From positions 1-59,302 of the IMG/VR virus record IMGVR_UViG_3300031416_000008: DNA of 59,302 nucleotides. One strand, 5' to 3'. Both the position numbers and the translations under genes were made by a program. The notes beneath the pieces are model-generated. The model made no database searches, was not told the DNA's origin, and was given only the letters and a program-made list of their open reading frames with translations. Source of the DNA: a virus. Shown here one piece after another: positions 3,544 to 47,099 of this stretch; within the stretch, counting starts at the first letter, position 1, and every line of letters starts with the position of its first letter.

Positions 3544-3779
3544 TTTTTCGCCCTTCCGTACAGGAATTGTTCTGCATTTTTCGGGCGGTGTATTGCGGTG
3601 AGATGCGCTTGCTGACGCGGTGTTTTCGCGGTGTGCGCTACCCCCACAATATACCACATGGACTAGGGGAAGCCGTTTTGAAGGGCTTTTTTCGAGTGTT
3701 TTCAAAGGGGTGGAAATTGCCCGAGCCAACGCCGTACAAACTGCGTACAGGATAGAGGGGGTTTTGATGGAAATAGCGC

Positions 3780-4151: not shown

Positions 4152-4156
4152 GCTGC

Positions 4157-25433: not shown

Positions 25434-25473
25434 TGAAAGCCCCCTAATTGTTCCGCAAAATCGGGGTCTTTCA
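25434..25473 (+). promoter_or_regulatory. Hairpin abutting the GT25 start codon
   Basis: TGAAAGCCCC pairs with GGGGtCTTTCA. The last A is the A of the ATG. Confidence 0.45.
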
Positions 25474-26292: not shown

Positions 26293-26327
26293 GCGCATGA
26301 CGTGCCTCTTTCGAGAGGATAGTCATG
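26293..26327 (+). promoter_or_regulatory. Late leader element 2
   Basis: Box at 26293-26305. CATGAC pairs with GTCATG (ATG). Inner CCUCU-UUCG-AGAGG hairpin covers the SD. Confidence 0.6.
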
Positions 26328-28067
26328 CCTACAATCAAGCTTGGTGCTTTCACTGGCGAACAGCCCCGTTTGATATCGCGGCTCCTGCCTGCAACCGGAG
26401 CTCAATTCTCGGTTAATACACGGCTCGACGATGGCGGACTGACTCCGTTTAATAGTGCTGTGCAAGAAGCCGAGATTGCCTCCGCCAATGCAAAGACAAT
26501 CGTGAAATTCCAAGGTCAGTGGCTTTCGTGGCCTGGCATTATTCACGCTGCACAGGGCCCAGTGGCGGAGGAACGCCTCTATTACACCGGGGACGGCAAG
26601 CCGAAACTACGCGTTGGAAACACCGTTTATGATTTGGCTGTAGCGCGACCGAACGCGGCGCTAACTGCTACCTTGGGCGGTTCAGGCACTGGCGATGTTC
26701 AGACGCGCATTTACACTTACACTTATGTCACAGATTTGGGTGAAGAGTCCGAGCCGGCTCCTGCATCACCTGCGATTGACTGGAAACCGGGCCAGTCGGT
26801 TACGCTGTCAGGCCTTCAAGCCCCGCCTGCAGGACGTGCAATCACAAAGCAGCGAATTTATCGCTCACAAACCGGCAGCACCGGGACATACTTCTATTTC
26901 ATCGCCGAGCGTGCAGCGTCAGGTAATAATTTCGTCGATAATATCGCGGTCGATGCTTTTCAGGAAATGTTGCCGTCAGTTGCGTGGAATGCGCCACCAG
27001 ACAGCCTGCACGGGTTAATTGCTATGCCGAACGGCATGATGGCAGCATTCGATGGCAAGAAGCTCTATTTCTGTGAGCCGTTCCGTCCTCACGCCTGGCC
27101 GGAAAAATACGTGCTCACGACTGACACCGACATCGTTGGGCTTGGTGCAGTTGGCACGTCACTCATCATCATGACGAAAGCACAGCCGTATCTTGCGTCT
27201 GGTTCGTCTCCCGACGCGATGCAAATGGTGAAGCTGGAAAGCAATCTGCCGTGTATCAATGCGCGCGGCATTGTGGATCTTGGATTTGCGATTGCATATC
27301 CGTCCAATGAAGGTTTAGCGGCAGTTACGGCGAGCGGTGAAGCACGTTTGGTTTCCGGCGATATTATGAGCCGGGATGACTGGCTTGCGACTAATCCGAA
27401 AACAATTATTGGCGGGCAGCTTTCAGGCCGCTACGTGGCGTTCTATGACACACAGGACGCCAACGGCACGCAGATGCGCGGTGCGCTTTTTCTCGATCTT
27501 GGCACAACGCCCTACCTGATCCGGACCAACACCGCCGTCTCAGCTGCTTATTTCGAGATTGAAACCAGTGCCCTGTATTTTCTCGCGAAGGGCGAAAACG
27601 ATATTTATCGAATGGATGCGCCGACCGGCGATAAGGAATCGTACTATTGGAAATCGAAAGACTTCCACACGATGATGCCATTGAGCTATGCGGCCATTCA
27701 GGTTGATACAATCGATTTTGTTTCGCCGCTGGAATACAAGAATTATGAGACGACGAGGGCGCAGGTTTTGGAAAAGAACCAGCAGCTCATAAATTCTAAA
27801 ATTAGCCTGGGCGATTTGAACGCGGCGCCGATCAATCACGTTGCAAGCGGCGGGGACAATCTTCTGCGCCTCCCGACACCCCCGGGGAATGTTCGCGTTG
27901 GTATTTATGCCGACGACAGATTGGTGGCGACAATCACGCGCACCGGCTCACCGCAACGTCTACCGGCGATCAAAGCCACGAAATGGGAAATCGATGTGAG
28001 CGCGAATGTCAGCGTCTCTCAGATCGTCATGTCAACAACCATGGATGAATTGAGGCAAAACGTATGA
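26325..28067 (+). CDS. Large tail structural protein (580 aa)
   Basis: Position and size fit. Beta-rich sequence. Confidence 0.6.
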   Translation: MPTIKLGAFTGEQPRLISRLLPATGAQFSVNTRLDDGGLTPFNSAVQEAEIASANAKTIVKFQGQWLSWPGIIHAAQGPVAEERLYYTGDGKPKLRVGNTVYDLAVARPNAALTATLGGSGTGDVQTRIYTYTYVTDLGEESEPAPASPAIDWKPGQSVTLSGLQAPPAGRAITKQRIYRSQTGSTGTYFYFIAERAASGNNFVDNIAVDAFQEMLPSVAWNAPPDSLHGLIAMPNGMMAAFDGKKLYFCEPFRPHAWPEKYVLTTDTDIVGLGAVGTSLIIMTKAQPYLASGSSPDAMQMVKLESNLPCINARGIVDLGFAIAYPSNEGLAAVTASGEARLVSGDIMSRDDWLATNPKTIIGGQLSGRYVAFYDTQDANGTQMRGALFLDLGTTPYLIRTNTAVSAAYFEIETSALYFLAKGENDIYRMDAPTGDKESYYWKSKDFHTMMPLSYAAIQVDTIDFVSPLEYKNYETTRAQVLEKNQQLINSKISLGDLNAAPINHVASGGDNLLRLPTPPGNVRVGIYADDRLVATITRTGSPQRLPAIKATKWEIDVSANVSVSQIVMSTTMDELRQNV

Positions 28068-28324: not shown

Positions 28325-28734
28325 CTCCAGCAGTTCTTCGCCTCATGTTGCGCCCCACTTTGTCGAAGGTAAAGCTGGGCCCCGAAGATGTAATATCGAT
28401 CGACTTTGCCAATAGACTGCGAGAATGGACAATCACGCGCCATCTGAACGCTGTTTGGACCCATATACCCAACGAGGTTGCTGGCGGCACGAAAAATGCC
28501 GGACTGAGATATTCCATTGCCAAGGCACTTGGGATGATCAGCGGCGCGGCAGATTACGTTTTCTTGTGGGCAGGCGGAAGCGCGGCCATTGAAATGAAAT
28601 CCGAGACGGGGAAGCAAAGCGCGAACCAGACCGATTTCCAGAAGTGGTGCGAGGTGATGAGCGTGCCTTATTACGTTGCCCGATCAGCTGATGAAGCCGA
28701 AAAAATCTTGCGAACGCTTGGAATCCTCAAATGA
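28321..28734 (+). CDS. VRR-NUC domain nuclease
   Basis: GAADYVFLWAGGSAAIEMKSETGKQSANQTDFQKWC...PYYVARSADEA matches VRR-NUC (D..E-x-K..Q). Confidence 0.75.
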   Translation: MTPAVLRLMLRPTLSKVKLGPEDVISIDFANRLREWTITRHLNAVWTHIPNEVAGGTKNAGLRYSIAKALGMISGAADYVFLWAGGSAAIEMKSETGKQSANQTDFQKWCEVMSVPYYVARSADEAEKILRTLGILK

Positions 28735-29156
28735 GCCTTGAATTTGATCATTCGCGCCGCCCGAAATATAGAAACTGGGCCGCAGAGATAATTGGTATTC
28801 GCAATTTCCGGCCGGATGCTGTGACCATCACCGCCTTAAAGGCGGGTGAAATCACCGCCGTCACGGTATTCGATACGTTTTCGGACAATGATTGCCAGAT
28901 CCATGTTGCATCGGATGGTTCGCGAAATTGGCTATCGCGGCAGTACCTGCAGATGGTTTTTGCATATCCCTTTCGACAGTTGGGTTTGCGCCGGCTTACG
29001 TCACTTGTGTCAGTGAACAATGCCGCATCGCTAAGTTTTTGCCAGCAATGCGGCTTTATTCGCGAGGGACAGTTGCGAAAAGCCGCCGAAAGTGGTGAAG
29101 ATTTAGTCCTGTTCGGGATGCTACGCGAAGAATGCCGGTGGCTCCCGCTCTTTTGA
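28731..29156 (+). CDS. GNAT-family N-acetyltransferase
   Basis: QLGLRRLTSLVSVNNAASLSFCQQCGFIREGQLR is the GNAT motif A/B region. Confidence 0.75.
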   Translation: MSLEFDHSRRPKYRNWAAEIIGIRNFRPDAVTITALKAGEITAVTVFDTFSDNDCQIHVASDGSRNWLSRQYLQMVFAYPFRQLGLRRLTSLVSVNNAASLSFCQQCGFIREGQLRKAAESGEDLVLFGMLREECRWLPLF

Positions 29157-29487: not shown

Positions 29488-29532
29488 GCGCATGATGTGC
29501 TGACACCTGATTAAGTTGAGGTTCACATCATG
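29488..29532 (+). promoter_or_regulatory. Late leader element 3 (covarying copy)
   Basis: Box GCGCATGATGTGC. CATGATGTG (29491-29499) pairs with CACATCATG (29524-29532). Confidence 0.6.
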
Positions 29533-30699
29533 GGTAAAGGTTCGTCCTCCGCTCCCGATCCAGATCCTAATATCGGTAAAGCCGCTCTTAAGCAGGCTGA
29601 AACTGGTGAGCAGTGGCTTGCCTTTTCCAAGGAGTCTTTCGCAGTTTCGCAGGAGCGCCAGAAAGAACTGGACGCCCTGACAAAGCGCGTCACCGAACAA
29701 CAGCTTGGCATCGCCGATCAACAGGCGGCGTGGGCGAAATCCGATCGAGAACGATATGAAAATACGTTTAAACCGATCGAAGATCAGTTCATTCAGGAGG
29801 CGACGAATTACGCCACACCTGAAAAACAGGCCGAGGCGGCAGCGACTGCATCAGCAGACGTGCGCGCGGCGCAGTCGTCGGCACAAGAACAGGGGCTTCG
29901 CCAGTCCGCTTCCCTCGGTATCAACCCAACGTCTGGTCGATACGCTGGAATCGATCGTGCAACTGACATGGCATATTCGCTTGCCGACGCGGGCGCGAAG
30001 AACAATGCCCGTCAGGCAGTACGTGACAAAGGCTTGGCACTTAAGGCCGACGTGGCGAACCTTGGACGCGGATTGCCGGCGCAGTCAGCGCAGGCGCAGT
30101 CTTTGGGGCTGGGAGCCAGCGGTGGGGCACTTGGTCTTAATCAGGGCACCAACGCCCAGTCTATGCAGGCATCCAACATTGTGAACTCCGGCTACGCGGG
30201 CGCGATGCAGGGTTACGCCGGTATGGGTCAGACCCTTAATCAGCAGTATGCTACGCAGGTCAGTGCATGGGAAGCGCAGCAGAAAGCCAATTCCGGTCTA
30301 TTTGGCGGCATCGGCGAAGCTCTTGGCGGTATCGCCGGCATGTTTATGTCGGACGAGAATGTCAAAGAGAACAAGGTGCCTGTTGAAGACGGCAAGGCGC
30401 TGGAAGCCATTGAGAAAATGCCGATCGAAGAATGGGATTACAAGGCAGGCGTTGAGGATGAAGGCCGACACATTGGCACCTATGCGCAAGACTTCCAGAA
30501 AGCGACCGGCAAGGGCGACGGCAAAAGCATTCCTATTATCGATGCAGTAGGAATTACCATGAAGGCCGTGCAGGACGTCTCGAAGAAGGTAGACGGACTC
30601 GCTAAGCAGATTGGCATTGGCGGCGCTAAGAATGCAAAGCCAGCTGCTCCAAAGGCTCGCCCGCGTAACATGGAACTTGGACTGGGAGTTGCAGCATGA
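29530..30699 (+). CDS. Virion protein with C-terminal peptidase S74 intramolecular-chaperone domain
   Basis: SDENVKEN...ALEAIEKMPIEEWDYK....HIGTYAQDF.......IDAVGITMKAVQDV is the S74 autoprocessing signature. Confidence 0.75.
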   Translation: MGKGSSSAPDPDPNIGKAALKQAETGEQWLAFSKESFAVSQERQKELDALTKRVTEQQLGIADQQAAWAKSDRERYENTFKPIEDQFIQEATNYATPEKQAEAAATASADVRAAQSSAQEQGLRQSASLGINPTSGRYAGIDRATDMAYSLADAGAKNNARQAVRDKGLALKADVANLGRGLPAQSAQAQSLGLGASGGALGLNQGTNAQSMQASNIVNSGYAGAMQGYAGMGQTLNQQYATQVSAWEAQQKANSGLFGGIGEALGGIAGMFMSDENVKENKVPVEDGKALEAIEKMPIEEWDYKAGVEDEGRHIGTYAQDFQKATGKGDGKSIPIIDAVGITMKAVQDVSKKVDGLAKQIGIGGAKNAKPAAPKARPRNMELGLGVAA

Positions 30700-31889
30700 G
30701 CTTCGGTGCAGGACTAGCGGGATTTGTTCGCGGGCTCGATACAGGCATGTCGATCCGCGAGAAATACGAGGCCAATAAAGAGCGCAAGGCGTTCAAGGCC
30801 CAGCGTGATCAGATCAATACTGATACCAAGTCTGCCTTTGCAGAGGCGAAGGCGGCTGGCGCTGTGCAAGATGGCGACTTCATGACCTTTTATCAAAAGT
30901 ACGCCTTACCAAAACAGCAGGCACTTTTGGTTGAGCAGGGTGACTATGGCGGCGCTAAGGCGTTGGGCGAATGGTCGAAGTCAGACGACGCACAGAATGG
31001 CGCAAAGCTTTTCGGTTCTGCAATGGTAAAGGTTCAGTCAGGCGATTATGACGGTGCGATTCAGGATGCTATCGCCGCCGGACAGTTGAAAGGCTATGTA
31101 AACACCGATCATAAGCTGACGGGCAGCACACCTATTCAGCAGAACGGGAAAACAATCGGATACCAGTTCCAGCTTTCAGACGGCGACGGCAAAGCATACA
31201 CTCGCAATATCCGCCTGCAGGACATTCCAAATACGATTGCGACCTACGTTAATCCGGAAGCAGCTTGGCAGACGCAAGTCGGCGCGGACGCAGCTCAGAA
31301 GAAACGAACACAAGAGCTCGACGATTATCGGACGAAAAAGAAGATCGACAAAGAGTTTTCGACTGACAAGACCGAAGATGCTCAGGCTAAGCGTTATAAG
31401 GACGCTCAGGAGGCGCGCGCCAAAACCGACTATGACTGGGGCGATCGGTCCGCAGACGAACAGGACAAACTGATCCGCGAAGATTTGGCGAAACAGGATA
31501 AATTTGGCGCAGAGAAAGCGGCCACCAAATCGGGCAATTCCGCAAGCGCTGCGCCTGGCTTAAATCCTGCTCCCCAAAAGCAGCGTATGATTGTCGACAC
31601 CGAAACAGGAAAGCCCGTTCCTATCACCGCTCCAGATCAGACGAAGGCGCTTGGCATTTCCGCTCCTACACAGAGCGCACCGGCTGCATCACCAGCTCCG
31701 GCTCGAAAGTCTGCACCGACCATTGAAAGCACGATAGCGGATGCGACTGATCAGCTATCACAGGGTGCAAACCCTGAAATGGTGAAGCAGCAGTTGCTCA
31801 ATGCTGGCGTTCCGGAAACCAATTGGCCTGATCAGCTGACCAATGCGAAGAAAACAGCGGCCAATGGTGCTGTGGGGATCAGCTTCTAA
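30696..31889 (+). CDS. Probable internal virion / ejection protein (397 aa)
   Basis: Lies between the S74 protein and the giant gene. Lys/Asp-rich helical middle and Ala/Pro-rich tail. Confidence 0.5.
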   Translation: MSFGAGLAGFVRGLDTGMSIREKYEANKERKAFKAQRDQINTDTKSAFAEAKAAGAVQDGDFMTFYQKYALPKQQALLVEQGDYGGAKALGEWSKSDDAQNGAKLFGSAMVKVQSGDYDGAIQDAIAAGQLKGYVNTDHKLTGSTPIQQNGKTIGYQFQLSDGDGKAYTRNIRLQDIPNTIATYVNPEAAWQTQVGADAAQKKRTQELDDYRTKKKIDKEFSTDKTEDAQAKRYKDAQEARAKTDYDWGDRSADEQDKLIREDLAKQDKFGAEKAATKSGNSASAAPGLNPAPQKQRMIVDTETGKPVPITAPDQTKALGISAPTQSAPAASPAPARKSAPTIESTIADATDQLSQGANPEMVKQQLLNAGVPETNWPDQLTNAKKTAANGAVGISF

Positions 31890-31938: not shown

Positions 31939-31973
31939 GCGCATGACGTGCTAACCGAGCAGGGTACGTCATG
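31939..31973 (+). promoter_or_regulatory. Late leader element 4
   Basis: Box at 31939-31951. CATGACGT (31942-31949) pairs with ACGTCATG (31966-31973). Confidence 0.6.
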
Positions 31974-34900
31974 GCTATTACACTGGATTCAAACGCTGAT
32001 CTTGATGCTTTCTTTGGCTTGGAAAAAGCCGGAAGCAATTCTCCCGCAACAGACAATCGGGAGACTGACGACAAACGTCCGATCCAGTCTGCATCTACAG
32101 AATCCTCGCGTGTGCCCCGTCTCCAACCTATCGGCATAAACTTTGACGCGCCAAAAGCTTCAAATCCGCCCGCCAGCGCGCCCGAAGCTTCAAAGGCTAC
32201 ACAGACTCAAGAAATCCCATCAGCCCCGCAGGCGACCCAGCCAGCGGAAATATCGGGTGTTTCCGCGCGTGATTGGAATGACGCCGTTAATACGATTATC
32301 GCAGAAGCCGGCGGCGACGGCCCTGTCGGTATGCTTGGCGTTGCGAGCACCATTCGCAACCGTGCAAATATTCGAGGCAAGACAATCGGCGATATCGTCC
32401 GCGCCCCAAGCCAGTTTGAAGGCTTTTATGCGCCGGGCCCTAAAGCCGTGGAAGCGCAGAACAATCCGCAGGTGCGCGCAGAAGCCGAGCAGATCCTTCG
32501 TGGTGTTCTAACCGGAGAATTAAGCGATCCGACAAATGGTGCTGACCACTTCCACGCCAACGGTATTAATCCGAAGTGGGCCAGCTCCATGCCGGAAACG
32601 GCGCGAATTGGTGGCCATGTTTTCTACAACTCCAAGCAGGAAGGTGCACCGCGTCAGGTCGCGTCGATGGACCCCGCTATCGGGCTTGATGAGCCGCGCG
32701 GCAATCGTCGCGGTCTTGCGAACCTCGTTCCCGAACAAAAGGAACCGGAAAACACGAAAACCGGCAGCTTGGCGTTCGTCAACCCCGGTCAGGAAAAGAT
32801 CAACCCCGCATTCGCCTCCGTTCTGCAGGACGTTTCCGCTGACATTGGCAAGGGCCTTGTCATCACTTCCGGATACCGATCGCCTACGCATCGGGTGGAA
32901 GCAGCGAAGAAAAAGCCCGGTCAGCATTCACATGGTACAGCTGTCGATATAAGCTTGAAGGGTATGAACGGCCAGCAGCGTTTCGATCTTGTGCAATCGT
33001 TGAAAGCGCGTGGCGTTCGCCGTTTTGGCACCTACTCAAACTCTCCAGATATCATCCACGTCGACATGCTTCCGATGAAGGATTCGAAGGATGGCTTCTG
33101 GTACATGCATAATAAGTCGGTCAATAACATGGGCGGTGCTCCAGATTGGCTAAAAGCAGCGCGCGCAACGCGCGTGAAGCGATATGATGTGCCGCAGGGC
33201 AAGGCTATCGAGGCCGGCGCGGATTTCCGTTTTGATGGCGATCCAGAACCAGTTGCGCAGAAAACACCAGCAACTCCAGAAGTGGAAAGCACTGAGCAGC
33301 CGACCGAAGCTGATCCGATCGACGCGCGCCTCGAAGAACTCAATAAGTCAGAGCCCGGCAAGTACCAGGCAATGACTGAAGACGAATATGCCAAGTGGCG
33401 TGAGGAGTGGGAAGCCAATCAGCCCGGTATTCTACAAGACGTCGCGCGTATGGTCGCCGCTGGGGCTGTCACAGGTACCGCATCAATCATTAAAGGTATT
33501 GGTCGCCTTGATGCAGCCTTCAATGCGAACGTCCTTAATCCACTTTTCGGCACAGAATTTAGCGAAAGCAACGAATACGACGTGCCTGCCGGTTGGGTTG
33601 AGAAGTACGGCGAGGGCATTAAGAAGGGCGTTTCGCAGGCGACCAAAGACGCTATCGAAACCAGTACGCCTGATGGCGATCTATTGGACCCGTCAACTTG
33701 GACGCTCGGTACTAACCCATCGGCAAGGGGCCTTGTTGCCCTAGGGGCTGACGTTTTCGGCTCAATGGTTCCAGTGGTCGCGGCAGCTGTAGCGACCGGC
33801 GGTACGGGCGGATTTATTGCAGGCGGTGCGCAGGGCGCAGGCGGTGCAGAAGATCGGGCCAAGCAGATCATTGATGAGCTCGCAGCAGAGCCCGGCGCGC
33901 TCGAAACTCAGTCTGCTTATTTCCGTGAGCAAATTGCATCCGGAAAATCCCGCGAAGAAGCGATCAAAGCCACTAAGGACGCGGCAGCGAACATTGCGTC
34001 TGTATATGCAGCACCAATTGCGGGTGTTGGTGGCGTACTCACCGGCAAAATTGTTCACCCAGCCACCAATATTCTCGCAAGCAAAGCACTGCCCGCTCGC
34101 ATTGCAGGCCGCGCAGTCGCCGGCGCGTTGGAAGAAGGTTCGCAGGAAGCGCTTGAAACCGTAGGCGCTAACGCTGGCGTCAATCAGGCGATCGGTACTG
34201 ACCTCAACGTCACCGACGGTACATTCGGCGACTTTGTTCTCGGTGCCATGGCGGGCGGCGCTACCGGTGCTGCAGGTGGCGTCACCAGCCGCAGATCAGC
34301 ACCCCAGAGCGAAGCAGCCACGGAAACTCCAGCGGCGGCTCCAGCTTCCGACCCAGTACAGACAACGGCTCCAGAACCACAGGACACACCACAGCGCAAA
34401 GGCCCGCTTTCGCGCGCGTTCGAGGAATCCGCGTCACGTACTGATCTCGAATACGTCGTCAACGATCCAGATATCGATGGTAGCGGGCCCGGCGAAATTC
34501 ACGGTCAGACTGTTCAGATATCGGCCAATCAGGATCGGGTGCCAGCAGGGATGCGCCGCGTCATCGATCAGAGCGGCGTAGAACGCGTCATTGGCGATCG
34601 GGTACTGATGCCTTTGACACAAGCGCAGGAAGCCGGAATCCGTCCAGCCGATCGCACTACTGCGACAAGCGTCCAGTCAGGTAAAGGCGCTCCAACCGTC
34701 GGGTCAACAGTTAATGTTACTTTGCCAGACGGCAGCTCCATTCGCGGCACAGTTGATAGTTACGCCGATGGTGAAGCGGTTATCACTGATGAAGTCGGCG
34801 AAGTGTTTCAGGTTCCGGTTTCGTCTATCGCCGCTCTAGAGGCCGCAGCAGCTGTGAAACCGGGCCAGCTTCCAACCGATGCACTGCCGGAGCGTGATGC

Positions 34901-37900
34901 AGACGCGCAGGACGAGTTGCCAGCGCAACCACCAATGGCTTCCGAAACCACTGTCGAAGAAGACGTTGCGCCCGTCGATCGGCAGAAGAATATTGTTTCC
35001 GCTGAAAACGCGCCCAAGGTTGGCCAGAGCGTTATTGTAAATGCGCCTGGCTTAAAGCGGGTTACCGGCAAGATCGAACAGTACGTTTACGAGGACGAAG
35101 AATACCAGGCTATCGTTCGCGAGAGCGGCGGCATGACAATTCAGGTTCCGATCGAGCATCTGTTTGTCGATTCTACGACCAATAAGCAGGCCGATGCGGA
35201 GGAGTTGCGCAGGAATCCGCCTGTTGATCGTCCTGACATTGACCCCAACGAACCGCGTGTCCGTAAATTTGGAGACAAGGCGGTCCGTCTGCCCGATGAT
35301 GAGTCACAGCGTATATTCGATCTTGGTCAAAACCGGGCGATGGCCAAGCGCCTGCTGGGTACGTCTGAACTTGATAAAGATCGAGCAGCTGTGCCGGCAC
35401 AAAAAGCGCTGGCTGATGAACTTGGTATTTCTTTTGAAGACGCCGGCAAGCTGGCTGATGATTATCGGTACCGCGTCGAAAAAGCCGGTAAGCAGGCACG
35501 ATCGAAACTACCTGTCGAAATGCACTCAGTTAATCCCGTCATGCTCGATCGGATGCGCAAGCGGGTAGAAAGTCAGACAACAGCCGAGCCGGCGCCCGCA
35601 GTCACAGAAGTTTCGGTTGAAGCTGCTGAACCGGTATCGAAAGTCGAAACGCCACAGGTAACGGGCACCGACACAGAGACATGGTACAATTCCATGTCAG
35701 AAACAGATCGTGCCGCCACGCTTGCCAAATCGGGCATTAAGCGCTCGCCGAAAGCACCATTCGATAAGCTGTCGCCGAAAATCCAGCAGACGTTGAATAA
35801 GCAGCGTCAGGTTGAAAGCGAAGCACAGCAAGCCCCGATCGACATTGCGGCCGTACAAGCAGCGACGCATCCGGACAACGACATTGCGGAACCGACGCTC
35901 GCGCAGAAAGAAGCCGGAAATTATGCCAAGGGCCATGTGCGTTTAGGTGGCATGGATTTGTCGATCGAAAATCCAGCGGGCTCCGAACGCAAAGGCGTAG
36001 ATGCCACCGGCAAAGAGTGGTCCACAACGATGCAGGGCCACTACGGCTACATCAAAGGCACCATTGGCCGCGACAAAGACCACATCGACGTTTTTGTTAA
36101 GCCGGGCACCGCTGACGTTTCCGACACAGCGCCGGTTTTCGTGGTTGACCAGAAAAACCCAGACAATGGCCGATTTGACGAACATAAGGTCATGATCGGT
36201 TATGATAGCCAGCAGGAAGCCGAAGCAGCATATTTGGCGAACTATACGCCTGGTTGGAAAGGCATGGGCGACGTTACAGAAACAAGCCTTGCCAACTTCC
36301 GGAAATGGACCAAAGATGGCGACACCACAAAAGCTTTCGCTCCGAAGTGGTTTGGCACGCGAGAAAAGGCAGATGCCTACGTCGCGAAGAACAACCTTTC
36401 AGATACGCACTCTGTCGTAGAAAACGGCAAGCGCTTTGAAGTCCGTCAGGCTTCCGACAATGCTGCACAAACTGCAAAACCGGCGAATAATATTCAAAAT
36501 CGTTCCAACAACGATTTGGAACGCTTGAAAAACGATTACCGCCGCCAAGTTGCCGAGGCTCCTTTCGCTGACGTTTGGGGATCAGATCGCGAGCCCGTTT
36601 ATGACGCACTGTCACAGCTGGCGGAAAAATCGCCGCTAAAAGACAGGGAGATTGTTTACGCGGTACGTGAAAATGCCAGTGATGCGGACCTCTTGAGTGC
36701 AGCTGCTCGGACGTTCGGCGTTGGCGGCGCTGGCGGCAACAAGTACATGGTTGAAACCCGCGAAGGGCCGACTGTCACTGTCACGTTAGAAAAAGATAGT
36801 GGGCCAGAAAAGATTGTCCTCAAGGGCAAAAAGCTGGCTGACACTCTGCGGCGCGAATTTACCCGTACCGTAGAGGAAATGCGTGAAGATGCGATACGCG
36901 CGGGAAAAACGCGCGCATTCATCGACAAGAAAAAGGCGGAACACAGAGAAAAGACTGCGAGCAAAAATAGCAGTGCGTTGGTGGGTGAGCCGCTTCCCAC
37001 GCGCGGTGTTGCGCCCGCCAATATAGGTAGTGACGGCAATACCTACGTCGGAAAGCCCGGCGGTGTTCATTTCGAGATTAAAAGGCCTGACGGCGTGGAA
37101 TGGACCGATATCGGTTTTGTAAATCCATCCGGTCAATTCCTTGATCGCAAACAAGCGTTTGAATGGGTCGAGCAGAATGAACAGCGTGTCCGCCCCTCAG
37201 ACAATATGGACGCATCCCTCGATGCGCTCGATTATCGTGAGCAGGTTCCAGAGCGAGTGCGAAAGTCGGGCAAAAAAAACGCAGAAAAGCTCGACACCCT
37301 AATCGACACTGGTCAGCTGACCGCCGCATCCGATTGGGGCGCTTCCAATAAATTAGTTTCACGCGATCGAGCAGATGAAATACGTAAGAAGCTCCGCGCG
37401 AAACTGAATGGTCAGATAAATTCGGGCATTGATCCGGAAATTCTAGCGCTGGGAACCGAGCTCGCGGCATTCCACATCGAGGCCGGTGCGCGTAAGTTTA
37501 CAGACTTTGCACGCGCTGTTGCTGTAGACATGGACGCAAGCATTGAAAAGCTTCGCCCATTCCTACGGGCGTGGTATAACGGCGCGCGCGACATGATGGA
37601 GGATTCCGGGCTTGATATTTCAGGCACCGATGATGCCAATGCTGTAAAGAGCGCACTCGCAACGCTAAAGGACGTGGACGATGGAAGCCTTTCAAAACTG
37701 GAAACGAGAAGCGGAGCTGCATTGGAAGCAGTTTCAGCCGAACCGTTACAAGGAACTGAAAGCGGGCGGAAAGCTCGATCAGGCGTTGACCGAAGCGGCC
37801 AATCAGACAGCACTGGAAATGAACCAGCTGACGGAAAGCGGCTTCCAGCCGGACGAAGCGTTTCAGATGGTGAGACAGAACTATCTGTTCCCGCCAGAGG

Positions 37901-40900
37901 AAGGCAGCGAAATGAGCGTACCAGAAATGGGCCAGACCTCTTTGAGCGAGCAGATGACAAACGCAGTCCGGAAGGGCAGCAGGACAATGGACCTGTAGGC
38001 GAAAAGCCGCTTTCCGACTCCGTAAATCCCGAGAAACGTGTATCGCCGGACGATTCAGCAGCCACACCTGCACATAATCGTCCGGATGGGTTCACCATTA
38101 CGGATGAAGATGCAATCGGCGCTGGCGGACCAAAAACCAAGTTCCGCAATAACGTTGATGCCATCAAGCTTCTTCGAAAGCTCACAGAAGAAGGTCGGAC
38201 GGCGAGTCACGCAGAACAGAAGGTTCTTGCGAAATGGGTAGGCTGGGGCGGTTTGCAGCAAGCATTCGTGCGTCCGGACGGTTCCAAGGCCAAAGGCTGG
38301 GAAAAAGAAGCTGATAGTCTCAAGGAACTGCTCACGCCCGAAGAATACCGCGCGGCAGAAGCCTCAACCCGCAACGCCCATTACACCGCACCTGAAATCA
38401 CCAAAGCTATTTGGAAGGTTGCGCAGCGGCTTGGTTTCCGTGGTGGTCGCGTGCTTGAGCCTTCCGTTGGTTCAGGTAATTTCCTCGGACTGGCTCCGGG
38501 AGAACTGAAACACCGCGCGCAGTTTACCGGCGCGGAATTAGACCATATTACGGGTGGCATCGCGCAGCAGCTCTATCCGGCAGCTAACATCAAAGCTCCT
38601 GTGGGTTTTCAGGAGTTGCAGATCCCGGACAATTATTTTGAGTTGGCCGTTGGCAATCCGCCATTTGGCAGTGAACGCCTTTACGACGCGCAGCGCAAGG
38701 AAGCTGCGAAATTCTCCATACATAATTACTTCTTTGCAAAATCCGTCGACACATTGAAGCCGGGCGGAATTTTGTCGATGGTAATCACAAACTCATTCCT
38801 TGATGCGGCAAAGTCCGCAGCACGTCGATACATCGCGGAACGTGCCCGGCTCGTCGGTGCAATTCGTCTGCCGAACAACGCCTTCCTTGCGAACGCTGGA
38901 ACGGAAGTCACTACCGATATCGTCGTTCTTCAAAAATACCCAGAAGGCACTGCACAGGCGGACAAGGATTTCTCTTGGGTTGACGTCGGCAATTATCGTG
39001 ACGCGCAAGGGCGCGACACGCCGCTTAATCAGTATTTTGTCAGCAATCCCGATATGATGCTGGGCGACTTCGGCCGCTACGGCACAATGTATGGCCCAGA
39101 GCAGCCCGCGCTTATTTCGCGTAACGGCGATAATCTTTCGTCCCTGCTCGACAAGGCTATTAATTCGTTGCCGGCTGAAATTATGCCGACACGAACGATT
39201 GAGGAAATAACAGAGTCCGCGGTAAAGCGGGAACTCGATCCCGTCGCTGTGCCCGTCGGCTCTTTTGTTACCGACGCGGATGGGAATATTTCGGTGCGAG
39301 CCCCAGACCTGTTGGGGGAAACACGCGTTATCCCGCGTGCTGATATTACCGGTAAAGATAAGCAGCGCATTTCCGGACTTGTGGCGCTTCGCGACATATT
39401 CACCAACTTGCGCCGCGCTCAGATCGATCCGAACAGCACTGACGCTCAGTTGAATGCGCAGCGCCAATCGCTGAACGAAGCCTATGATGCTCTGACGAAA
39501 GAGTTTGGCCCGATAAACAGCGAAATGAACCGCCGGGCATTTCAAGATGATCCAACATGGCCGCAAGTTTCGGCGTTGGAAATTTCCTATGACAAAGGCC
39601 TCACACGTGAAGCCGCTAAAAAGACTGGCGAAACACCACGTAAACCGAGCGCGGTAAAGGCTCCAATATTTGAGCGCCGCACGCAAGAACCATACAGCCG
39701 TCCGCAGACTGCAAACACCGCAAAAGACGCGCTTGCTATTGCTATGTCGGAATCGGGCTTTGTGGACATGGCTCGCGTTCTTGATCTTTACCGCAAGCCT
39801 GTTTCAGAAGTTGTCGCAGAGCTCGGCGATCAAATCTACATGGCACCGGATGGCGGATTTCAAACCGCCGATATTTATCTATCCGGAAATGTGAAACAGA
39901 AGCTCGCCCGCGCCGAAGAAGCAGCAAAGCTTGATCCAGCCTTTGAGCGAAACGTTTTGGCGCTCCGTGACAAAATTCCGGCCGACATTGATCCAGTTGA
40001 TATCGATGTAAAGGCTGGCGCACCTTGGATACCGGGTTCCGATATCGCTGATTTTATCCGCGATACGCTTGAGACAAGTCATGCCAGGGCAATTTATTCC
40101 CGTGGAACGGCTCGTTGGGAGCTAGATGCGGGACGAGCAAGCGACGTTGCACAGGCGAGGTGGGGAACACCTGATGCATCTGCACGTCAGGTTGTTGAAG
40201 CGGCCCTGAATGCGCGCACAATAACAATCAGCCATAAAAATGCAGACGGTTCCGTCACGGTAGACGAAGCCGCGACTGACGCTGCAAATCAGAAGGTGGA
40301 AGCGGTTAAAAACGAGTGGAAACGCTGGATTTGGGACAACGATGCCCGCCGCGAAAAGCTTTCCCGTCTCTACAACGATACGTACAACACCCACGTCGAT
40401 ACCGTCTATGATGGTTCGCATTTGATTTTGCCAGGCAAAGTCAGCGATGACGTTGTTGAATTACGTCCGCATCAGAAATCATTTATCTGGCGCGTTTTGC
40501 AGTCGTCGACCACTCTTGCCGACCATACAGTCGGTGCCGGTAAAACGTTCGCGGCGATCGGTGCGGTTATGGAACTTCGCCGCACCGGGCAGGCAAAAAA
40601 ACCGATGGTCGTCGTGCCTAACCATCTTGTGCAACAGTGGTCAGCTGATTTTATCAAGTTGTATCCGGGCGCAAATATTCTCGCGGCGACCAAGAAAGAT
40701 TTTGAAGCTGGCAACCGGAAGCGTTTCTTTGCGCGCGTCGCAGCAGGTGACTATGACGCCGTTGTGGTTGCACATTCGTCTTTCGGGCTCATCGGTGTTG
40801 ATCCGATGTTTGAGCGCGACTTCCTGCAAATGCAGGTGGCCGATATTGAAGACTCCATTCGCACGCTTGAGGAAGCGGAAGGCAAATCCAGCCGTAGCGT

Positions 40901-43900
40901 AAAGCAAATGGCAAAGCAGCGGGAAACCATTCAGACCCGTATGCAGAAGCTTCTGGATGCTGGAAGCAAAGACACCGGGATGACGTTTGAAGAAATGGGC
41001 GTAGACGCTCTTTTCGTGGACGAAGCCCATGAATTTAAAAATCTCGGTTTCTCAACATCGATGACGCGTGTTGCCGGGCTCGGTAACAAAGACGGCTCGA
41101 AAAAAGCCGCTGACCTGTTCATGAAAATTCAAAGCGTCATGAAGCGCACCGGCGGACGAAATGTCGTGTTCCTGACAGGAACACCGATATCGAACACAAT
41201 GGCCGAGCTCTACACGATGCAGCGCTATCTTGCCTATGATGCGTTGAAAGCGCAGGGCGTGGCGCATTTTGATGCTTGGGCGCGGGTATTCGGCGAAGTC
41301 GTAACAGACTTTGAACTGTCGGCTTCTGGTAAATACAAGCTCACTACGCGTTTCTCGCGCTTTGTGAACATGCCAGAGCTCGTAACGCAGTATCGCGTGT
41401 TTGCAGACACCATCACAAACGATGATATCCGCAGGCAACTTGCCGAGCGCGGTAAAACCCTTCCTCTGCCACGGGTCAAGGGTGACAAGCCTACCGCGAA
41501 CGTCGTTGAACCATCTGAATACCAGACCGACTTTATCGGCAATCCAACCGTGGATGAAAACGGGATCGAGCACTATCCGAGTGGCTCGATTGTCTGGCGC
41601 TCTGAAAATCTGCCTAAGAAGGCGGAGAAGGGCGCGGATAACATGCTCAAAGTCACTTCTGATGCCCGTAAGGCGGCGCTCGATATGCGTCTGATTGATC
41701 CTGAATATCCGGACTTTGCGGGTTCGAAGGTTCACAAAGCCGCAGACAATATCAAAAGCATTTATGACCGCTGGCACAATCAGAAAGGCACCCAGCTGGT
41801 ATTCATCGACCTATCCACCCCAAAAAAGGCGGTGGCCAAGGCACGCGCAGAATTGCTTGAGCTCCAGCGCAAAGCGGATGCCGGCGACGAAGCGGCACAG
41901 ACGAAGCTGGATAACATCAGCCTGGACGAAATTGCAGCGTTGGAATCGTCATTCTCCGTCTACGACGATCTAAAGGCAAAATTGATATCGCGTGGTGTTC
42001 CTGAAAAGGAAATCGCCTTCATTCACGATGCCAATACCGACCTGCAAAAGCAGGAGCTTTTCGGGAAAGTTCGTTCCGGACAGGTTCGTGTGTTGTTCGG
42101 CTCGACGCCAAAGATGGGCGCTGGAACAAACGTTCAGAACCGTCTTGTTGGACTTCATCATCTGGATGCACCGTGGCGCCCAAGCGACCTTGAACAGCGT
42201 GAAGGCCGCATCATCCGTCAAGGCAATGAATTATATGCTCTCGATCCGGACGGTTTCGAGGTTGAAATTCACCGCTACGCCACCAAGCGGACGCTGGACG
42301 CCAAACAGTGGCAGACGATCGAGCAAAAAGCACGTTTCATTGGTCAATTCCGCGCCGGAAATGTGAAAGAGCGCGCCGTAGAGGATATCGGAGGAGAGGC
42401 GGCAAACTCTGCCGAGATGAAAGCTGCAGCTTCTGGCAATCCGCTCATCCTGGAGGAGATGGAGCTCCGCCGCAAGGTGAAGCGTCTCGAAAACGAGAGC
42501 AGGGAACACGAACGCGGGCAACACTCGACGTCTCGCAATATTCGCGAGCTCGAAAATGAGCAGACGGAAATCAACGAGCGTTCCGAGGCGTTGGCACAAG
42601 ACGCAGATGCAGCGAAAAAATACCTTGCTGGTGAGTTTTCTGCCACGATCAATGGAAAGAGTTTCGAGAAGGCTGGCGATGCCGGCGCAGAAATTCTTGA
42701 TGTTGCACGCGATATGATTACCAGTGGCGCAACAAGTCGCGCTGTGGGCTCCGTTGGCCCGTTCCGTGTAACGCTGCAAAAAGGTTTGGCATCCTCTTTC
42801 CAGATCACGCTCAAGGGTGCGCGGGAATACGACATAAGTTTGCCTGATGTCGGTGAGCTAACGCCTGTGGGCGCATTCATGCGCGTGATGACACCTATTA
42901 GAAATCTGCCTGAACGTCCGGCCTTTGATCAGGAACGGCTATCGACGATAGCGAAAACGCTACCACGACTGAAAGGCGAGCTTTCTGAATGGCAAGGCAG
43001 AGCGGAACTCGACGAGACGCGACAGAAGCACAATAATATCCTTGCCGCCTTGCGTCCTAAAAAGAAGGACGCGCCGACCGTTGAAATTGAAAAAGCCGCA
43101 GAACAGCCGAAAGCCTCAATCGTCGATCGCGAACCAGTAGCACGTTTGACAGGCGAAGAAGTTCTGCCTGGATTCACACCAGACAAAGACATGGGCGCAT
43201 TAATTCGGGCCGCGTCACGTTGGTATAGTGAAAACCTGCAAGGCACGACGACAAAAACCCGCGATGGGGTCACGGTTGATTTTATCCAGAAGGGTAGAGG
43301 CAAAACCACGTCGCGATCAAAAGGCGATAAACTTTTGCGCGCTATCCCTGCTATCCGGGATATTATCGAAAAGGGCGAAGTCGTTCATCGAGAAGCGGGT
43401 ACAAAGGCGAACGTCCTCAATCGAGTAATAATTGCAGCGCCCGTTGAACTGGCCGGTGAAACGCTTCATCTGGCTATTTCTCTGCACGAAACAAACGCAA
43501 AAACCTACCAGTATGACTTCACGTTCAACCGTGAGGCATATCAAGATAGTGATCGAGCTTCCGTTGGAAGTCTTGACGGAGAGACGTGGGTAAATCACGA
43601 AGGGCTTGCCACCCGCGAAGGCGCGCTACCTAGCTTAGAAGTGCCGCTGTCCGCCAAGACAGATATTAATCTAGTCGAATGGACGCCAAAAATCAATAAT
43701 TCTGAGTCCGACGCGCTCCGCACGGCATTGCAGCGTGGCGAATTTGGCACAGAGGTAAATCGCCTGCTCGATAATGGCGCGATCGAGATCGGCAATATTT
43801 CCGATGAAAACGTGCAAGCATGGACACGTCCTGACGGCACGATAGTCCTGAATAGTGCCGTTCTAGCGCCACAAAACGCCAACGCTGTGTTGCTCCACGA

Positions 43901-46900
43901 GGCGTTCCATTCGGGCACGAAGCGCCTTATTGGGACGCGCGCGTGGAATGCGCTTATCTCCGATCTTGGCGATATTCGTGATCGATTTGAGCGTTCGACG
44001 GGTAAAGCTCGTCAGTTCTTCGAGCGAGCATCGCAGCGTGTCAAAACGGCCGAAAACCGTACTGGCAAAAAAATGGACGATAGTTTGTCCGCAGAAGAAT
44101 TTGGCGCGTACGCGATTGAGGAATACGAAAACGCTCCCCGCACCATCAGAATGTGGGCCGACAAAATGGTCGGGGCAATGAAGGCTTGGGCTCTCCGTCG
44201 GTTTGGGAAGCAAATTGGTGAAGTCACGCCTGCACAGCTTCGCGCTCTTGCTGTTGCGGCTCTCAAATCTAGCACTACCGAGCCAAATGGCCCGCGCGGC
44301 GGCTCTGACCTCACGACAACCAATGACAAATATTCATTGGTCAAGTCGCCGAAGACAGAAGACGTGCGCAACGCGGTGGATTCCATGAAAGGAAGGCTGA
44401 CCGACCTTACCCCGCAAGCCTTGGCTCTGATCCCGCTCAATTATTTCACCGAGCTCGCACAGAAAGGTCATACGGCTATTGCCGATTACCTGACTGTGAA
44501 AAGGCAGCTCGACTCTTACCGTGGACGTCGGAATGAACAAGCCGATAAGATCGTGCAGCAATGGCGCAAATATAATCGGCTTGGCAAAGAGCGTGCGCAA
44601 GACATGGCCGATATCATGCATGAGGCGACGATTGCTGGATATGACCCGTCGATCGAGAACGACGCAGCTGATATCGCAAAAAATCGCTCCCTGCAGGCGA
44701 AGTATGACGCGTTGCCAGAAGCTGGAAAGCAGCTCTATGACACCGTGCGCAACAGCTATCTCGAACAATCGCGCGAGCTCGATGGCATAATTGTCGATAA
44801 TCTGAAAAAGGTCTTTCAGATAGCGCAGAACAAGGCCGAGCGGAAATACCGTAAGCAGCTTGAACAGCTCTCCAAACAGCGCATGGCCCCAGCCGATCGG
44901 AAAAAAGCCGAAGACGATGCACATGCAGCGTACGAGTCCACGACCATGAAGGCTAAATGGTCGATGAAAGCTCGTCTCACAAAAATGCGCCAGGCGCTCG
45001 AAAGCGACCGCTTGGATGGGCCATATTTCCCGCTTGCTCGCTTTGGCGACTATTTCGTCACAGTGAAAGATATCGACGGGCAGGTGATGCATTTCTCGCT
45101 GCATGAACGCAGTGCCGATCGGGACCGCGAAGCGGCTGATCTTCGCAAGCAGTATCCAAATGCTGATGTGATCGTTGGCATCAAGACAAACAGCGCGGAT
45201 CTTCGACAGGCGATGGACCCACGAGTAATTGCGGATATTCAGGCAATCATCGGTCAATCGAATATCGATAGTGACGTGGGCGCGGAAATGCTCGACCAAA
45301 TCTGGCAGCGGTATTTGCAAACAATGCCTGACATGTCGATCAGAAAGCGGCAAATTCACAGGAAGAAGACTGGCGGCTATACGTCGGACGCGTTGCGGGC
45401 CTACGCGTCTCATATGTTCCATGCCGCCCACCAGATGGGCCGACTTAAATATGGGGTGGAGCTTAATGAGCTCGTTAACACCGCTGCGGAACAATCGCAG
45501 GAAATGGCTAACCCGACGAAAGCGGGTATGCTGTCGAATGAATTGGGCAAACGCCATAAGTGGGTAATGAACCCAACAGGCTCGCGCTTTGCGCAGGCGA
45601 TCAACAGCACTGCATTCGTTTGGTATCTGGCAGCAACGCCCGCAGCCGCCCTTGTGAACCTGTCGCAAACGCCAATGCTGGGTATTCCTATTATGGGCGC
45701 CCGTTTCGGCACGGCCAAAGCTACAGCGGCGCTCTTGCGCGCGTCCGGCGACCTATTCCGGGGCAAGGGCAGCGTTCAGCACAAAAACCTCACAGCTGAT
45801 GAGCAATCAGCGCTTAATGACTTCTACGAGTCGGGCCTGATCGATCGCACACAGTCACACGACCTTGCCGGCGTTGGTGACACCGGTGTGAACTATTCTC
45901 CGTGGCGGGCATCTGTCATGGCGAAGATTTCATACCTCTTCCACAAAGCGGAAGTGATTAATCGCGAAGTCACAGCGCTGGCTGCATACCGTCTGGCGCG
46001 CGATAGCGGTATGCGGACAGGAAAAGCTGTTGAAGTCGCTCACGATCTTACGTGGAGAACGCATTTTGATTACTCGAATAGCAGCCGTCCACGCATCATG
46101 CAGAACGACTTCGCGAAGGTCGCGCTCGTTTTCCGCTCATATTCCGTGAATATGATTTATCGCATCACGCGTGACTTGCACCAATCAATGAAGGCAGAAA
46201 GCCCACAGGCGCGCAAGGAAGCGCTCTACCAGCTTTCCGGGGTATTGGGCATGATGAGCCTCATGAGCGGCGCCACGGGCGTATTTGGCTTCAATGCGGC
46301 TATGATGATCCTTGGTATGTTCTTCGGTGGCGATGACGATCCGTTCGATTTCGAGCAGAAAGTTGCAGCAGCTGTTGTCGATACTCTCGGACCGACAATG
46401 GGCGGCATGGTGCTCAAAGGCCCTCTCGGACATTTGGCTGGGATTGATCTTACCAACCGCATAGGCATGGCCGATATCTGGTTTAGATCGCCCAACCGCG
46501 ACCTGGACGGACAGGACGAGTTTCAATACTGGGTAATGAACTCTCTTGGTGCTTCCGTCAGTATGGCAGGCGATGCTTGGAAGGGTGCGAGCAGCATCCT
46601 GAAAGGCGATATCGCCCGTGGAACTGAATACCTGGTACCGAAGGCCATCCGAGATCCGATGAAGGCTTATCGCTATGGAAGCGAGGGTGTGAAATCGGCT
46701 CTCGGAGACGAAGTGATCCCTGTCGATAACATTTCATGGGGCGACGTGGTGCGTCAGGGCGTTGGCTTTACGCCGGCGAAAGTATCGGAAGCGTGGTCAC
46801 GCTCCAGTGCGCTGAAAAATGCAGAGAGCCGCATTAATGCCAAGCGTCGGCAGCTGATGAATGAATTTGCAACGGCCGTTGAAATGAAAGACGTTGAAAC

Positions 46901-47099: not shown

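Follow-up and report, generated by a model that had tools for sequence, protein, structure and literature searches.

A predicted 5,042-residue DarB-like polyvalent protein, probably packaged and ejected by a POI1126-like temperate podophage

Introduction

What does a phage gain from a single gene that fills a quarter of its genome, and where does the product act? The question is raised by the open reading frame (ORF) at 31971..47099 on the plus strand of IMG/VR virus record IMGVR_UViG_3300031416_000008, of which we analyzed a stretch of 59,302 nucleotides (the window, by which we always mean this whole stretch). A sequence-only reading, made without database searches, had proposed that the 5,042-amino-acid (aa) product is a polyvalent virion protein of the kind of P1 DarB or the N4 virion RNA polymerase (vRNAP), and had held its size and combination of modules to deserve attention. 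Our analysis supports the first part of this proposal: the gene probably belongs to a temperate podophage resembling POI1126, a plasmid prophage of Brucella/Ochrobactrum, and encodes its giant polyvalent protein of the DarB-like kind, which would be packaged in the virion and ejected at infection. Membership in the class is supported by PHROG 10089, by the NCBIfam model NF032893 and by the domains LPD3, LPD39 and InPase, which are Pfam domains defined on polyvalent proteins (PMC5512222), while a location in the virion is supported by the presence of a homologue, gp69 of Burkholderia phage JC1, in virions and by the place of the gene inside the structural module, directly before the lysis genes.

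Results

An intact gene of an abundant class

The ORF runs from an ATG through 5,042 codons to one terminal stop, as both the ORF listing and the translation confirmed, and its predicted product has a mass of 550.8 kDa, a pI of 6.0 and zero cysteines. The two ends of the window (1-127 and 59176-59302) are the same 127 bp, so the unique replicon measures 59,175 bp, and the share of the gene is 25.6%, in agreement with the quarter read from the sequence. The end identity looks like the overlap of a circularised assembly, not like a biological terminal repeat. GC and GC3 are uniform along the gene.

We scanned the protein as eight overlapping 900-aa pieces against Pfam, NCBIfam and PHROGs. Overlapping pieces spanned positions 1-4646 of the 4647 in PHROG 10089, 'DarB-like antirestriction', with E values from 4e-73 to 0, and the matching region in the giant protein is aa 213-5042. 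At the C-terminus, the PLxRFG model NF032893, whose cutoff is 100 bits, scored 876.1 bits (E 1.7e-263) over positions 1-679 of its 681, and the 688 aa from PLARFG at aa 4354 to the end of the chain compare with a family median of 687 aa. Judged by sequence, the protein is a member of the PLxRFG class, of PHROG 10089 and of the polyvalent proteins.

In an exhaustive HMMER search with the PLxRFG module, the matches at E<=1e-3 numbered 8,139 cluster representatives, of which 3,369 still passed at E<=1e-30; 150 matches were listed, and of these 144 sequences (P0054-P0197, hereafter the representatives) were analyzed. The module lay at the extreme C-terminus in 150/150 of the matches listed. The representatives measure 654-5,930 aa, with 99 above 3,000 aa and 22 longer than 5,042 aa. 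Given also that relatives of 4,841-5,007 aa are annotated, and that the architecture of Atu_ph08 gp21, an N-terminal wall hydrolase and a peptidase followed by methylase and helicase, is already published (PMC6630229), the size and combination of modules cannot be called exceptional. The giant protein is an ordinary member of an abundant, already annotated class, typical in size and make-up.

Domain map of the giant protein

The features of the gene, with the evidence for each in brackets, are the following.

31971..47099 (+), whole gene: 5042-aa polyvalent protein of the DarB-like / PLxRFG class (full-length match to the PHROG 10089 profile; collinear with POI1126 gp30)
31971..32270 (+), aa 1-100: low-hydrophobic, Pro/Ala/Ser/Gln-rich, probably disordered (composition scan; common to 1/144 representatives)
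32319..32627 (+), aa 117-219: SleB-like hydrolase, Hydrolase_2, with Glu motif IIAEAGGDG (PF07486, E 1.6e-14; 13/144 representatives)
32802..33077 (+), aa 278-369: zinc peptidase for peptidoglycan, M15 (LAS-type), motifs HSHGTAVD and HVD (PF08291, Peptidase_M15_3, aa 278-365, E 3e-8; weak MepK match)
33408..34370 (+), aa 480-800: Gly/Ala-rich region, candidate membrane-inserting segment (hydropathy)
34665..34835 (+), aa 899-955: repeat copy 1, GSTVNVTLPDGSSIRGTVDSY... (pairwise local alignment)
34986..35162 (+), aa 1006-1064: repeat copy 2, GQSVIVNAPGLKRVTGKIEQY... (pairwise local alignment)
35901..36314 (+), aa 1311-1448: InPase, the type I inorganic-pyrophosphatase-like domain of polyvalent proteins (PF18823, E 4e-58; AGNYAKGH, DKDHIDVF; 74/144 representatives)
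36951..37268 (+), aa 1661-1766: exchanged module (unmatched in POI1126 gp30 and in P0054; shared with Ralstonia phage giant proteins; no Pfam family)
37323..37670 (+), aa 1785-1900: domain conserved in 8/8 phage homologues compared, including one without the methylase (63/144 representatives; no Pfam match)
38346..38975 (+), aa 2126-2335: gamma-class N6-adenine DNA methyltransferase, motif I VLEPSVGSGNF, motif IV NPPF (Eco57I, E 1.6e-10; N6_Mtase, E 1e-7)
40455..41285 (+), aa 2829-3105: SNF2/DEAD helicase N-lobe with GAGKT, DEAH and LTGTPISN (ResIII, SNF2-rel_dom and DEAD matches)
41982..42599 (+), aa 3338-3543: SNF2 helicase C-lobe, motif VI QREGRIIRQG (Helicase_C; sub-threshold DrmD-like match)
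43188..43499 (+), aa 3740-3843: LPD3, large polyvalent-protein-associated domain 3 (PF18798, E 2.4e-18; 20/144 representatives)
43743..44285 (+), aa 3925-4105: zincin-like (gluzincin-type) metallopeptidase domain with H3976, E3977, H3980 and E4043 (motif conservation, AF2 model)
44367..44903 (+), aa 4133-4311: LPD39, helical (PF18858, E 3.4e-54; 141/144 representatives; helical in the AF2 model)
45018..47054 (+), aa 4350-5028: PLxRFG domain, NCBIfam 'tail-700', with PLARFG at 4354 (NF032893)

The signature motifs occur once each, AGNYAKGH at 1315, DHIDVF at 1370, NPPF at 2229, GAGKT at 2855, DEAH at 3017, HEAFH at 3976 and PLARFG at 4354, and on inspection of the sequence the catalytic motifs of the hydrolase, the M15 peptidase, InPase, the methylase and the helicase are all intact. 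The map bears out most of what the sequence-only reading had recognised by eye, namely the two wall-cutting activities, the hydrophobic Gly/Ala-rich stretches, the pair of repeats, the AGNYxKGH...DHIDVF module (Pfam PF18823), the DarB-like methyltransferase joined to an SNF2/DEAD helicase and the PLxRFG domain. Of its other labels, HEAFH is backed by an invariant HExxH and a conserved E4043 but by no curated peptidase family, and the supposed membrane-like C-terminal helices are only moderately hydrophobic and are placed by the model inside a confidently folded helical domain. Its remark that RNA polymerase motifs are missing agrees with our Pfam, NCBIfam and PHROG scans, in which no RNA polymerase family matched, whereas its figure of about 2,000 unassigned residues was an underestimate.

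Curated models leave some 3,000 aa outside their coverage, although every stretch still has homologues in other giant phage proteins. Seven unassigned stretches (within aa 421-2030, 2335-2830 and 3420-3745) gave only noise against Pfam at E<=1, a word-index search for homologues of aa 421-1310 returned two matches only, and a phmmer search of aa 2401-5042 against PDB sequences found no match. Linkers poor in hydrophobic residues lie at aa 408-464, 753-828, 1908-2064, 2541-2589, 3500-3551 and 4285-4325. We found no tRNA and no Rfam family in the window.

Within the Gly/Ala-rich region, three stretches are hydrophobic, aa 584-621 (Kyte-Doolittle hydropathy, KD, 1.89), 671-696 and 755-773, and aa 480-800 share 37% identity with the DarB-like protein of Ralstonia phage GP4. 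The trait of the largest internal proteins of podophages, an N-terminal wall hydrolase and/or hydrophobic segment, is thus represented by Hydrolase_2, M15 and these three stretches. Homology of the region with the N-terminus of N4 vRNAP was considered and rejected, as a phrog_2206 match (E 2e-10) and a BLAST match (E 5e-4) were both lost on low-complexity masking and are compositional. The copies of the ~57-aa repeat further along, labelled SH3/KOW-like in the sequence-only reading, are a genuine duplication (local score 71, z = 10.7 against shuffles), and their putative SH3/KOW fold has no counterpart among Pfam matches, as the repeat region gave only noise at E<=1 (DUF7177, DUF6897, ProQ_C).

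InPase scored 195 bits against a gathering cutoff of 26.8, with the acidic metal-binding motifs DKDHIDVF and DEHK present. It also matches the C-terminal 130 aa of the portal gp19 sequence of Pseudomonas myophage Pa193 (9b41) at E 9e-29. That part of the Pa193 portal is invisible in the cryo-EM map, suggesting that InPase is tethered inside the heads of unrelated phages.

In the methylase-helicase core, methylase motifs I and IV and helicase motifs I, II, III and VI are intact, and the nearest solved relative of the methylase is M.TaqI (chains at E 5e-4). By tblastn, the core is 27% identical to the authentic P1 darB gene (E 2e-17), and it shares 33-34% identity with the proteins of Bcep22, BcepIL02 and JC1 across 97-98% of its length.

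Relatives and mosaic build

The closest annotated phage homologue, POI1126 gp30 (4841 aa, labelled 'DarB-like antirestriction' or 'DNA methylase'), is collinear with the giant protein from the first residue to the last, at 52% identity over aa 1-1638 and 71% over aa 1764-5041. The nearest database protein, 91% identical over the C-terminus, comes from a 58.7-kb Brucella contig, and a 59-kb Brucella pseudintermedia plasmid is also related. Further homologues are encoded as single ORFs in the following phages.

Atu_ph08 gp21 (Agrobacterium phage), 4877 aa
Microcystis phage Mwe-JY07, 4985 aa
Erwinia Pavtok gp27, 5007 aa
Klebsiella LASTA gp01, 4433 aa
Pseudomonas Skulduggery gp28, 3695 aa
Burkholderia JC1 gp69, 4515 aa

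In each phage the homologous giant gene lies 3' of tail or virion genes, and in most the lysis genes come next. JC1 gp69 has been detected by mass spectrometry in CsCl-purified virions with 51 unique peptides (PMC9144972). In Sinorhizobium phage PBC5 (2796-18544), the giant gene is present as two 'DarB-like' coding sequences with a 1.6-kb gap, and its GenBank version shows many small ORFs; the core was nonetheless matched continuously by tblastn, suggesting that the record probably contains frameshift errors.

By module content, the group is not defined by any one module: among eight phage homologues compared, the methylase-helicase core is missing from Skulduggery, LPD39 and PLxRFG are missing from JC1 and its relatives, the HEAFH domain is found in 4/8 and the pair of SleB-like hydrolase and M15 peptidase in 3/8. 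Across the 144 representatives, LPD39 occurs in 141, InPase in 74, the methylase/helicase in 57-62, the HEAFH domain in 34, LPD3 in 20, and Hydrolase_2 and M15 in 13 each, and the full set is shared by one representative only, the 80%-identical near relative P0054. As far as module counts can tell, the class is built from a constant C-terminal module (LPD39 plus PLxRFG) with variable, shuffled cargo in front. One exchange of cargo can be traced: the ~105 aa at 1661-1766 are 50% identical to a segment of the DarB-like protein of 23 Ralstonia phages and have the same GC as their flanks, and this is, by its distribution, a clear case of module exchange with Ralstonia phage proteins.

Exclusion of cysteine

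The giant protein has no cysteine where the other ORFs of the window would predict 29-41, and position-specific base composition would predict about 58 TGY codons. The same holds across the family, with 0-1 cysteines in each of the eight phage homologues (L001-L008) and 58 in 526,581 residues (0.011%) of the 144 representatives, 114 of which have none. The podophage ejection proteins T7 gp15 (747 aa), T7 gp16 (1318 aa) and N4 vRNAP (3500 aa) also have zero cysteines, as do the portal and the two virion proteins encoded directly 5' of the giant gene; in DarB of the myophage P1 there are 9 in the 2,191 residues read. We infer that selection excludes cysteine because such proteins have to pass a narrow tail as unfolded chains and regain their fold in the oxidising periplasm or beyond it. 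The word cysteine is absent from a paper on the N4 ejection proteins (PMC13434306), and no literature search was aimed at cysteine exclusion.

A zincin-like domain

In an alignment of the HEAFH region in 26 sequences, this protein and 25 homologues with identities down to ~20%, H3976, E3977 and H3980 are the only invariant positions, and E4043, 63 residues downstream, is the one other position conserved at 90% or more. An HExxH followed by this glutamate is, as a motif, the gluzincin signature. In the AF2 model of aa 3900-4140 (pLDDT 82), a first helix leads into a sheet of three strands, after which come the HExxH helix, a pair of inserted helices and the Glu helix. The metallopeptidase domains of polyvalent proteins are described as a core with that order of elements and with variable inserts between the two conserved helices (PMC5512222). 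Foldseek found nothing significant in the PDB for this model, the top zincin being the minigluzincin jannalysin (4jix) at E 1.7. No Pfam zincin family matched this protein, and some homologues gave sub-threshold hits to SprT-like (five homologues, best E 0.022), DUF6782, Reprolysin_2 and DUF3810. An hhalign comparison with the C-terminal domain C1 of N4 vRNAP paired HEAFH with HELVH and EEF with NEF over 154 columns (E 9.7e-5, probability 58%). We accept the domain as zincin-like on the conservation of its motif, the independent evidence from its fold being weak.

The C-terminal module

The AF2 model of aa 3860-5042 (1183 aa, 43 homologues) is almost all helical, with pLDDT 80.9 and pTM 0.72, and in its PLxRFG part the pLDDT is mostly above 80. 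Three moderately hydrophobic helices (4543-4577, 4754-4789 and 4797-4816) have KD values of at most 1.53 and lie within this confidently folded domain. Against the PDB, Foldseek gave nothing meaningful for the model (best E 0.01, TM ~0.1). Against predicted viral structures, it matched C-terminal fragments of many 'large polyvalent protein' entries and, more weakly, podophage proteins of 1,300-1,500 aa, among them one of Vibrio phage ICP2 at E 1e-9 and one annotated as 'putative internal core protein' in RSB3, a T7-like phage of Ralstonia, at E 7e-6 (TM 0.25); the TM-scores of these hits are 0.25-0.27.

Two candidate homologies of this module were tried and not retained. Homology with T7 gp16 or gp15 was rejected at the level of sequence, with negative scores from hidden Markov models (HMMs) and an hhalign probability of at most 2.6%, and homology of PLxRFG with the C2 domain of N4 vRNAP is unsupported, as hhalign against 13 N4-like C-terminal domains paired the zincin domains only. 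NCBIfam gives PLxRFG a descriptive name only, and the label 'ejection-protein domain' used in the sequence-only reading is a guess.

Genome context

The gene order is that of a structural module running into a lysis module, as had been noted from the sequence: a tail fibre gene, an internal virion protein gene and virion structural genes precede the giant gene, and a GH108 endolysin gene and a holin-like gene follow it.

26325..28067 (+), internal virion protein gene (phrog_511, E 4e-182)
29530..31889 (+), two Cys-free virion structural protein genes directly upstream of the giant gene (phrog_8003, phrog_9667)
47232..48529 (+), lysis genes directly downstream, GH108 endolysin and holin-like (PF05838, E 2.7e-28; weak GTA_holin_3TM; phrog_315, phrog_3427)

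From the 65% identity between its capsid protein and that of GP4, a phage with a T = 9 head, a T = 9 head can be inferred for the present phage. The 389-aa virion protein encoded two genes 5' of the giant gene (29530-30699, +) has a Peptidase_S74 'chaperone of endosialidase' domain (PF13884), suggesting that it is a self-cleaving tail fibre or spike and not an ejection protein. The idea that the two upstream genes encode partners like T7 gp14 and gp15 is therefore unsupported, one having this tail-fibre chaperone domain and the other no informative match. Matching to PHROG families named for DarA, Hdf or DdrA was absent in the 20 ORFs of the structural module, a result that concerns family names and is not a direct comparison with the P1 proteins.

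Several other genes of the window are of interest in their own right. A small acyl-CoA N-acetyltransferase gene (28731-29156, +) stands within the virion module, separated from the giant gene by a few genes, and the same placement is seen in POI1126, Atu_ph08, Skulduggery, Pavtok, JC1 and LASTA (coordinates L001 17765-18202, L002 31626-32075, L005 3532-3966, L007 425-865 and L008 2143-2598 among the homologue records), which suggests a link to the virion proteins or to the giant protein. Among the tail genes there is a glucosyltransferase-like gene (25473-26258, +; phrog_2835), possibly for modification of the surface polysaccharide of the lysogen. A stand-alone N6_N4 DNA methylase of 424 aa (6526-7800, -) gives the phage a predicted capacity for DNA methylation apart from the giant protein; its neighbour (5837-6526, -) has a weak match to the nuclease-related family NERD (E 9e-4, below the Pfam cutoff). 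Genes for a ParA-type ATPase, RepB/ParB partition and a tyrosine integrase (50554-52820, -, and 4157-5293, -) are present, as they are in POI1126, for which plasmid replication of the prophage has been published (PMC5492332). The ParA/RepB genes in the window fit that mode of replication, and the element may choose between plasmid and integrated states.

Discussion

A probably packaged and ejected protein

Our preferred reading, that the giant protein travels in the virion and enters the host cell, combines what the gene displays directly (an intact reading frame, class membership, conserved motifs, shuffled modules and avoidance of cysteine) with mechanistic steps drawn from homologues, analogues and the anatomy of the chain. 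The case for a polyvalent virion protein of the DarB and N4 vRNAP kind, as the sequence-only reading had it, joins PHROG 10089, the match to P1 darB and the invariant HExxH with the JC1 homologue found in virions; packaging and injection are suggested by such relatives, and JC1 shares the core and the HEAFH region.

A few copies would be built into the head at assembly, held by the constant C-terminal part (zincin domain, LPD39 and PLxRFG), a candidate packaging handle and the one part that the PLxRFG class has in common. At infection the chain, for the most part unfolded, would exit by way of the portal and the short tail, either before the DNA or together with it. The SleB-like hydrolase and M15 peptidase would then cut peptidoglycan while the Gly/Ala-rich stretches engage the inner membrane, roles proposed by analogy with T7 gp16 and the N-terminal domain of N4 vRNAP in their phages. 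Once in the cytoplasm, the methylase/SNF2 core might guard the arriving DNA against restriction in the way that P1 DarB counters type I systems, InPase could have a pyrophosphate- or nucleotide-related role, and the zincin domain may cleave the protein into separately active parts, a self-processing already proposed for the polyvalent class by Iyer et al. (PMC5512222).

Several points weigh against this account. The virion data come from JC1, whose protein lacks the PLxRFG C-terminus, and the activities of the domains are predicted ones throughout the family. The putative packaging or docking role of PLxRFG is deduced from its constancy and position, neither HMMs nor hhalign linked it to N4 C2 or T7 gp16, and the link of the HEAFH domain to N4 C1 has an hhalign probability of only 58%. 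By PHROG family name, a DarA-type partner is missing from the 20 structural-module ORFs scanned, and the two upstream genes are not obvious counterparts of T7 gp14 and gp15, one of them looking like a tail fibre. Finally, POI1126 DNA is cut normally by EcoRI and EcoRV, with no sign of bulk methylation (PMC5492332), although a protein that acts like DarB on incoming DNA would not conflict with this result.

Alternative explanations

The alternative that survives best would make the protein chiefly a structural ejection protein, in which LPD39 and PLxRFG form a T7 gp16-type core body at the inner-membrane or cytoplasmic end of a DNA-ejection channel and the enzymes are passengers. We regard it as possible but rather unlikely; it overlaps with our own reading and differs in giving the conserved module a channel-forming instead of a docking role. 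The Foldseek matches to viral models, including the RSB3 internal core protein and ICP2, speak for it but come with low TM-scores and no PDB fold match, and the HMM and hhalign comparisons with T7 gp16 and gp15 were negative. Two or three moderately hydrophobic helices in the module also speak for it, although the model places them in a confidently folded, soluble-looking bundle. An N-terminal wall hydrolase together with zero cysteines is shared with T7 gp16, and the module is very common and always terminal among the matches listed, yet the Burkholderia and Ralstonia relatives do without it.

That the protein is never packaged, and acts late in the cytoplasm to methylate or remodel progeny DNA while its wall hydrolases aid lysis, is in our view very unlikely. 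Methylase and helicase domains are usually cytoplasmic, the gene lies directly 5' of the endolysin and holin genes, and some N-terminal matches bear the PHROG label 'endolysin'. However, a GH108 endolysin and an N6_N4 methylase are encoded elsewhere in the phage, POI1126 DNA shows no sign of modification, and InPase, LPD3 and LPD39 were defined in proteins from a virion context. The JC1 homologue is in virions, and for an enzyme of the cytoplasm one would not expect cysteine to be excluded across the whole family, as it is from proven ejection proteins.

An ORF fused from several genes by assembly or annotation, which the sequence-only reading had named as a way to be wrong and for which one could cite the circular assembly with its 127-bp overlap and the 2002 record of PBC5 with several ORFs in this region, has a negligible chance and is excluded for practical purposes, because the start and full length are collinear with POI1126 gp30 and many independent genomes agree, there being 5,042 sense codons without a stop at even GC and GC3, a single ORF of 3,695-5,007 aa in seven other independently sequenced phages, 99/144 database representatives above 3,000 aa, and JC1 peptides assigned to one giant product.

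Wider meaning

For the gene alone little changes, beyond a confident DarB-like/PLxRFG annotation and a domain map that is now fairly complete. The wider value lies at the level of the family, in the constant handle with exchangeable cargo, the N4-like order of parts and the near absence of cysteine, and these observations make the packaging and delivery of proteins of half a megadalton open to experiment. The ~3,000 unassigned residues and the thousands of related proteins form a pool of candidate injected anti-defence effectors.

Comparison with known systems

POI1126, an Ochrobactrum phage of the genus Namazuvirus, is the nearest system: it has the same order of tail and virion genes, giant gene and endolysin, the ParA/RepB genes and a genome of ~59-60 kb, and it can be induced with mitomycin C. 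Its gp30 differs in being 201 aa shorter and without the aa 1661-1766 module, and the DNA identity is ~75% over just 23% of the gene. The Bcep22-like proteins (Bcep22 gp75, BcepIL02, JC1 gp69, and Ralstonia GP4 and relatives) are homologous in the domain at 1785-1900, the core, LPD3 and the HEAFH region (32-44% identity), are Cys-free and are encoded at the end of the structural module before lysis, but begin with a lytic transglycosylase instead of the SleB-like hydrolase and M15 peptidase (PMC6630229) and lack LPD39 and PLxRFG.

P1 DarB (2255 aa) shares the arrangement of N6-adenine methylase and helicase, with detectable homology, and is carried in the head, where it protects incoming DNA from type I restriction (PMC6630229). 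It belongs to a myophage, is less than half the size and lacks the wall hydrolases, InPase, the zincin domain and PLxRFG. Its packaging needs DarA, Hdf and DdrA, for which no counterpart was recognised by PHROG family name among the 20 structural-module ORFs scanned; nor has a DarA homologue been reported in Atu_ph08 or Bcep22 (PMC6630229).

The vRNAPs of N4 and DEV (gp50/gp71, Schitoviridae), the structure and ejection role of the N4 protein having been established recently, resemble the giant protein in the order of parts, in aligning HExxH domains, in zero cysteines and in belonging to podophages. In N4 and DEV, a hydrophobic N-terminal domain associated with the inner membrane is followed by the cargo enzyme, the HExxH domain C1 and a ~110-kDa helical C2 that has no structural relatives (PMC13434306), and the protein that forms the periplasmic tunnel is bound, in the case of DEV, by the vRNAP C-terminal domain (PMC11445570). 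Their largest ejection protein is thought to unfold for ejection and is present in about four copies in a T = 9 head (PMC11445570, PMC13434306). They differ in that the cargo is an RNA polymerase, not a methylase, helicase and InPase, and the neighbouring ejection genes are not recognisably equivalent. We tentatively suggest that the zincin domain with LPD39 and PLxRFG might be the functional counterpart, perhaps even a distant relative, of C1 and C2, that is, a general packaging and ejection handle for interchangeable cargo, with cysteine exclusion as the signature of threading. If this were true, the more than 8,000 PLxRFG clusters would amount to an inventory of effectors that are injected, and ejected proteins could be predicted from their depletion in cysteine.

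With the polyvalent proteins of Iyer et al. 2017 (PMC5512222), the comparison shows no difference in kind: unrelated enzymatic domains are joined in one chain in the context of virion genes, and the chain has the signature modules InPase, LPD3 and LPD39 as well as a pair of SWI2/SNF2 and adenine methylase domains, a wall hydrolase of lysozyme type and a zincin-like metallopeptidase (MPTase) domain.

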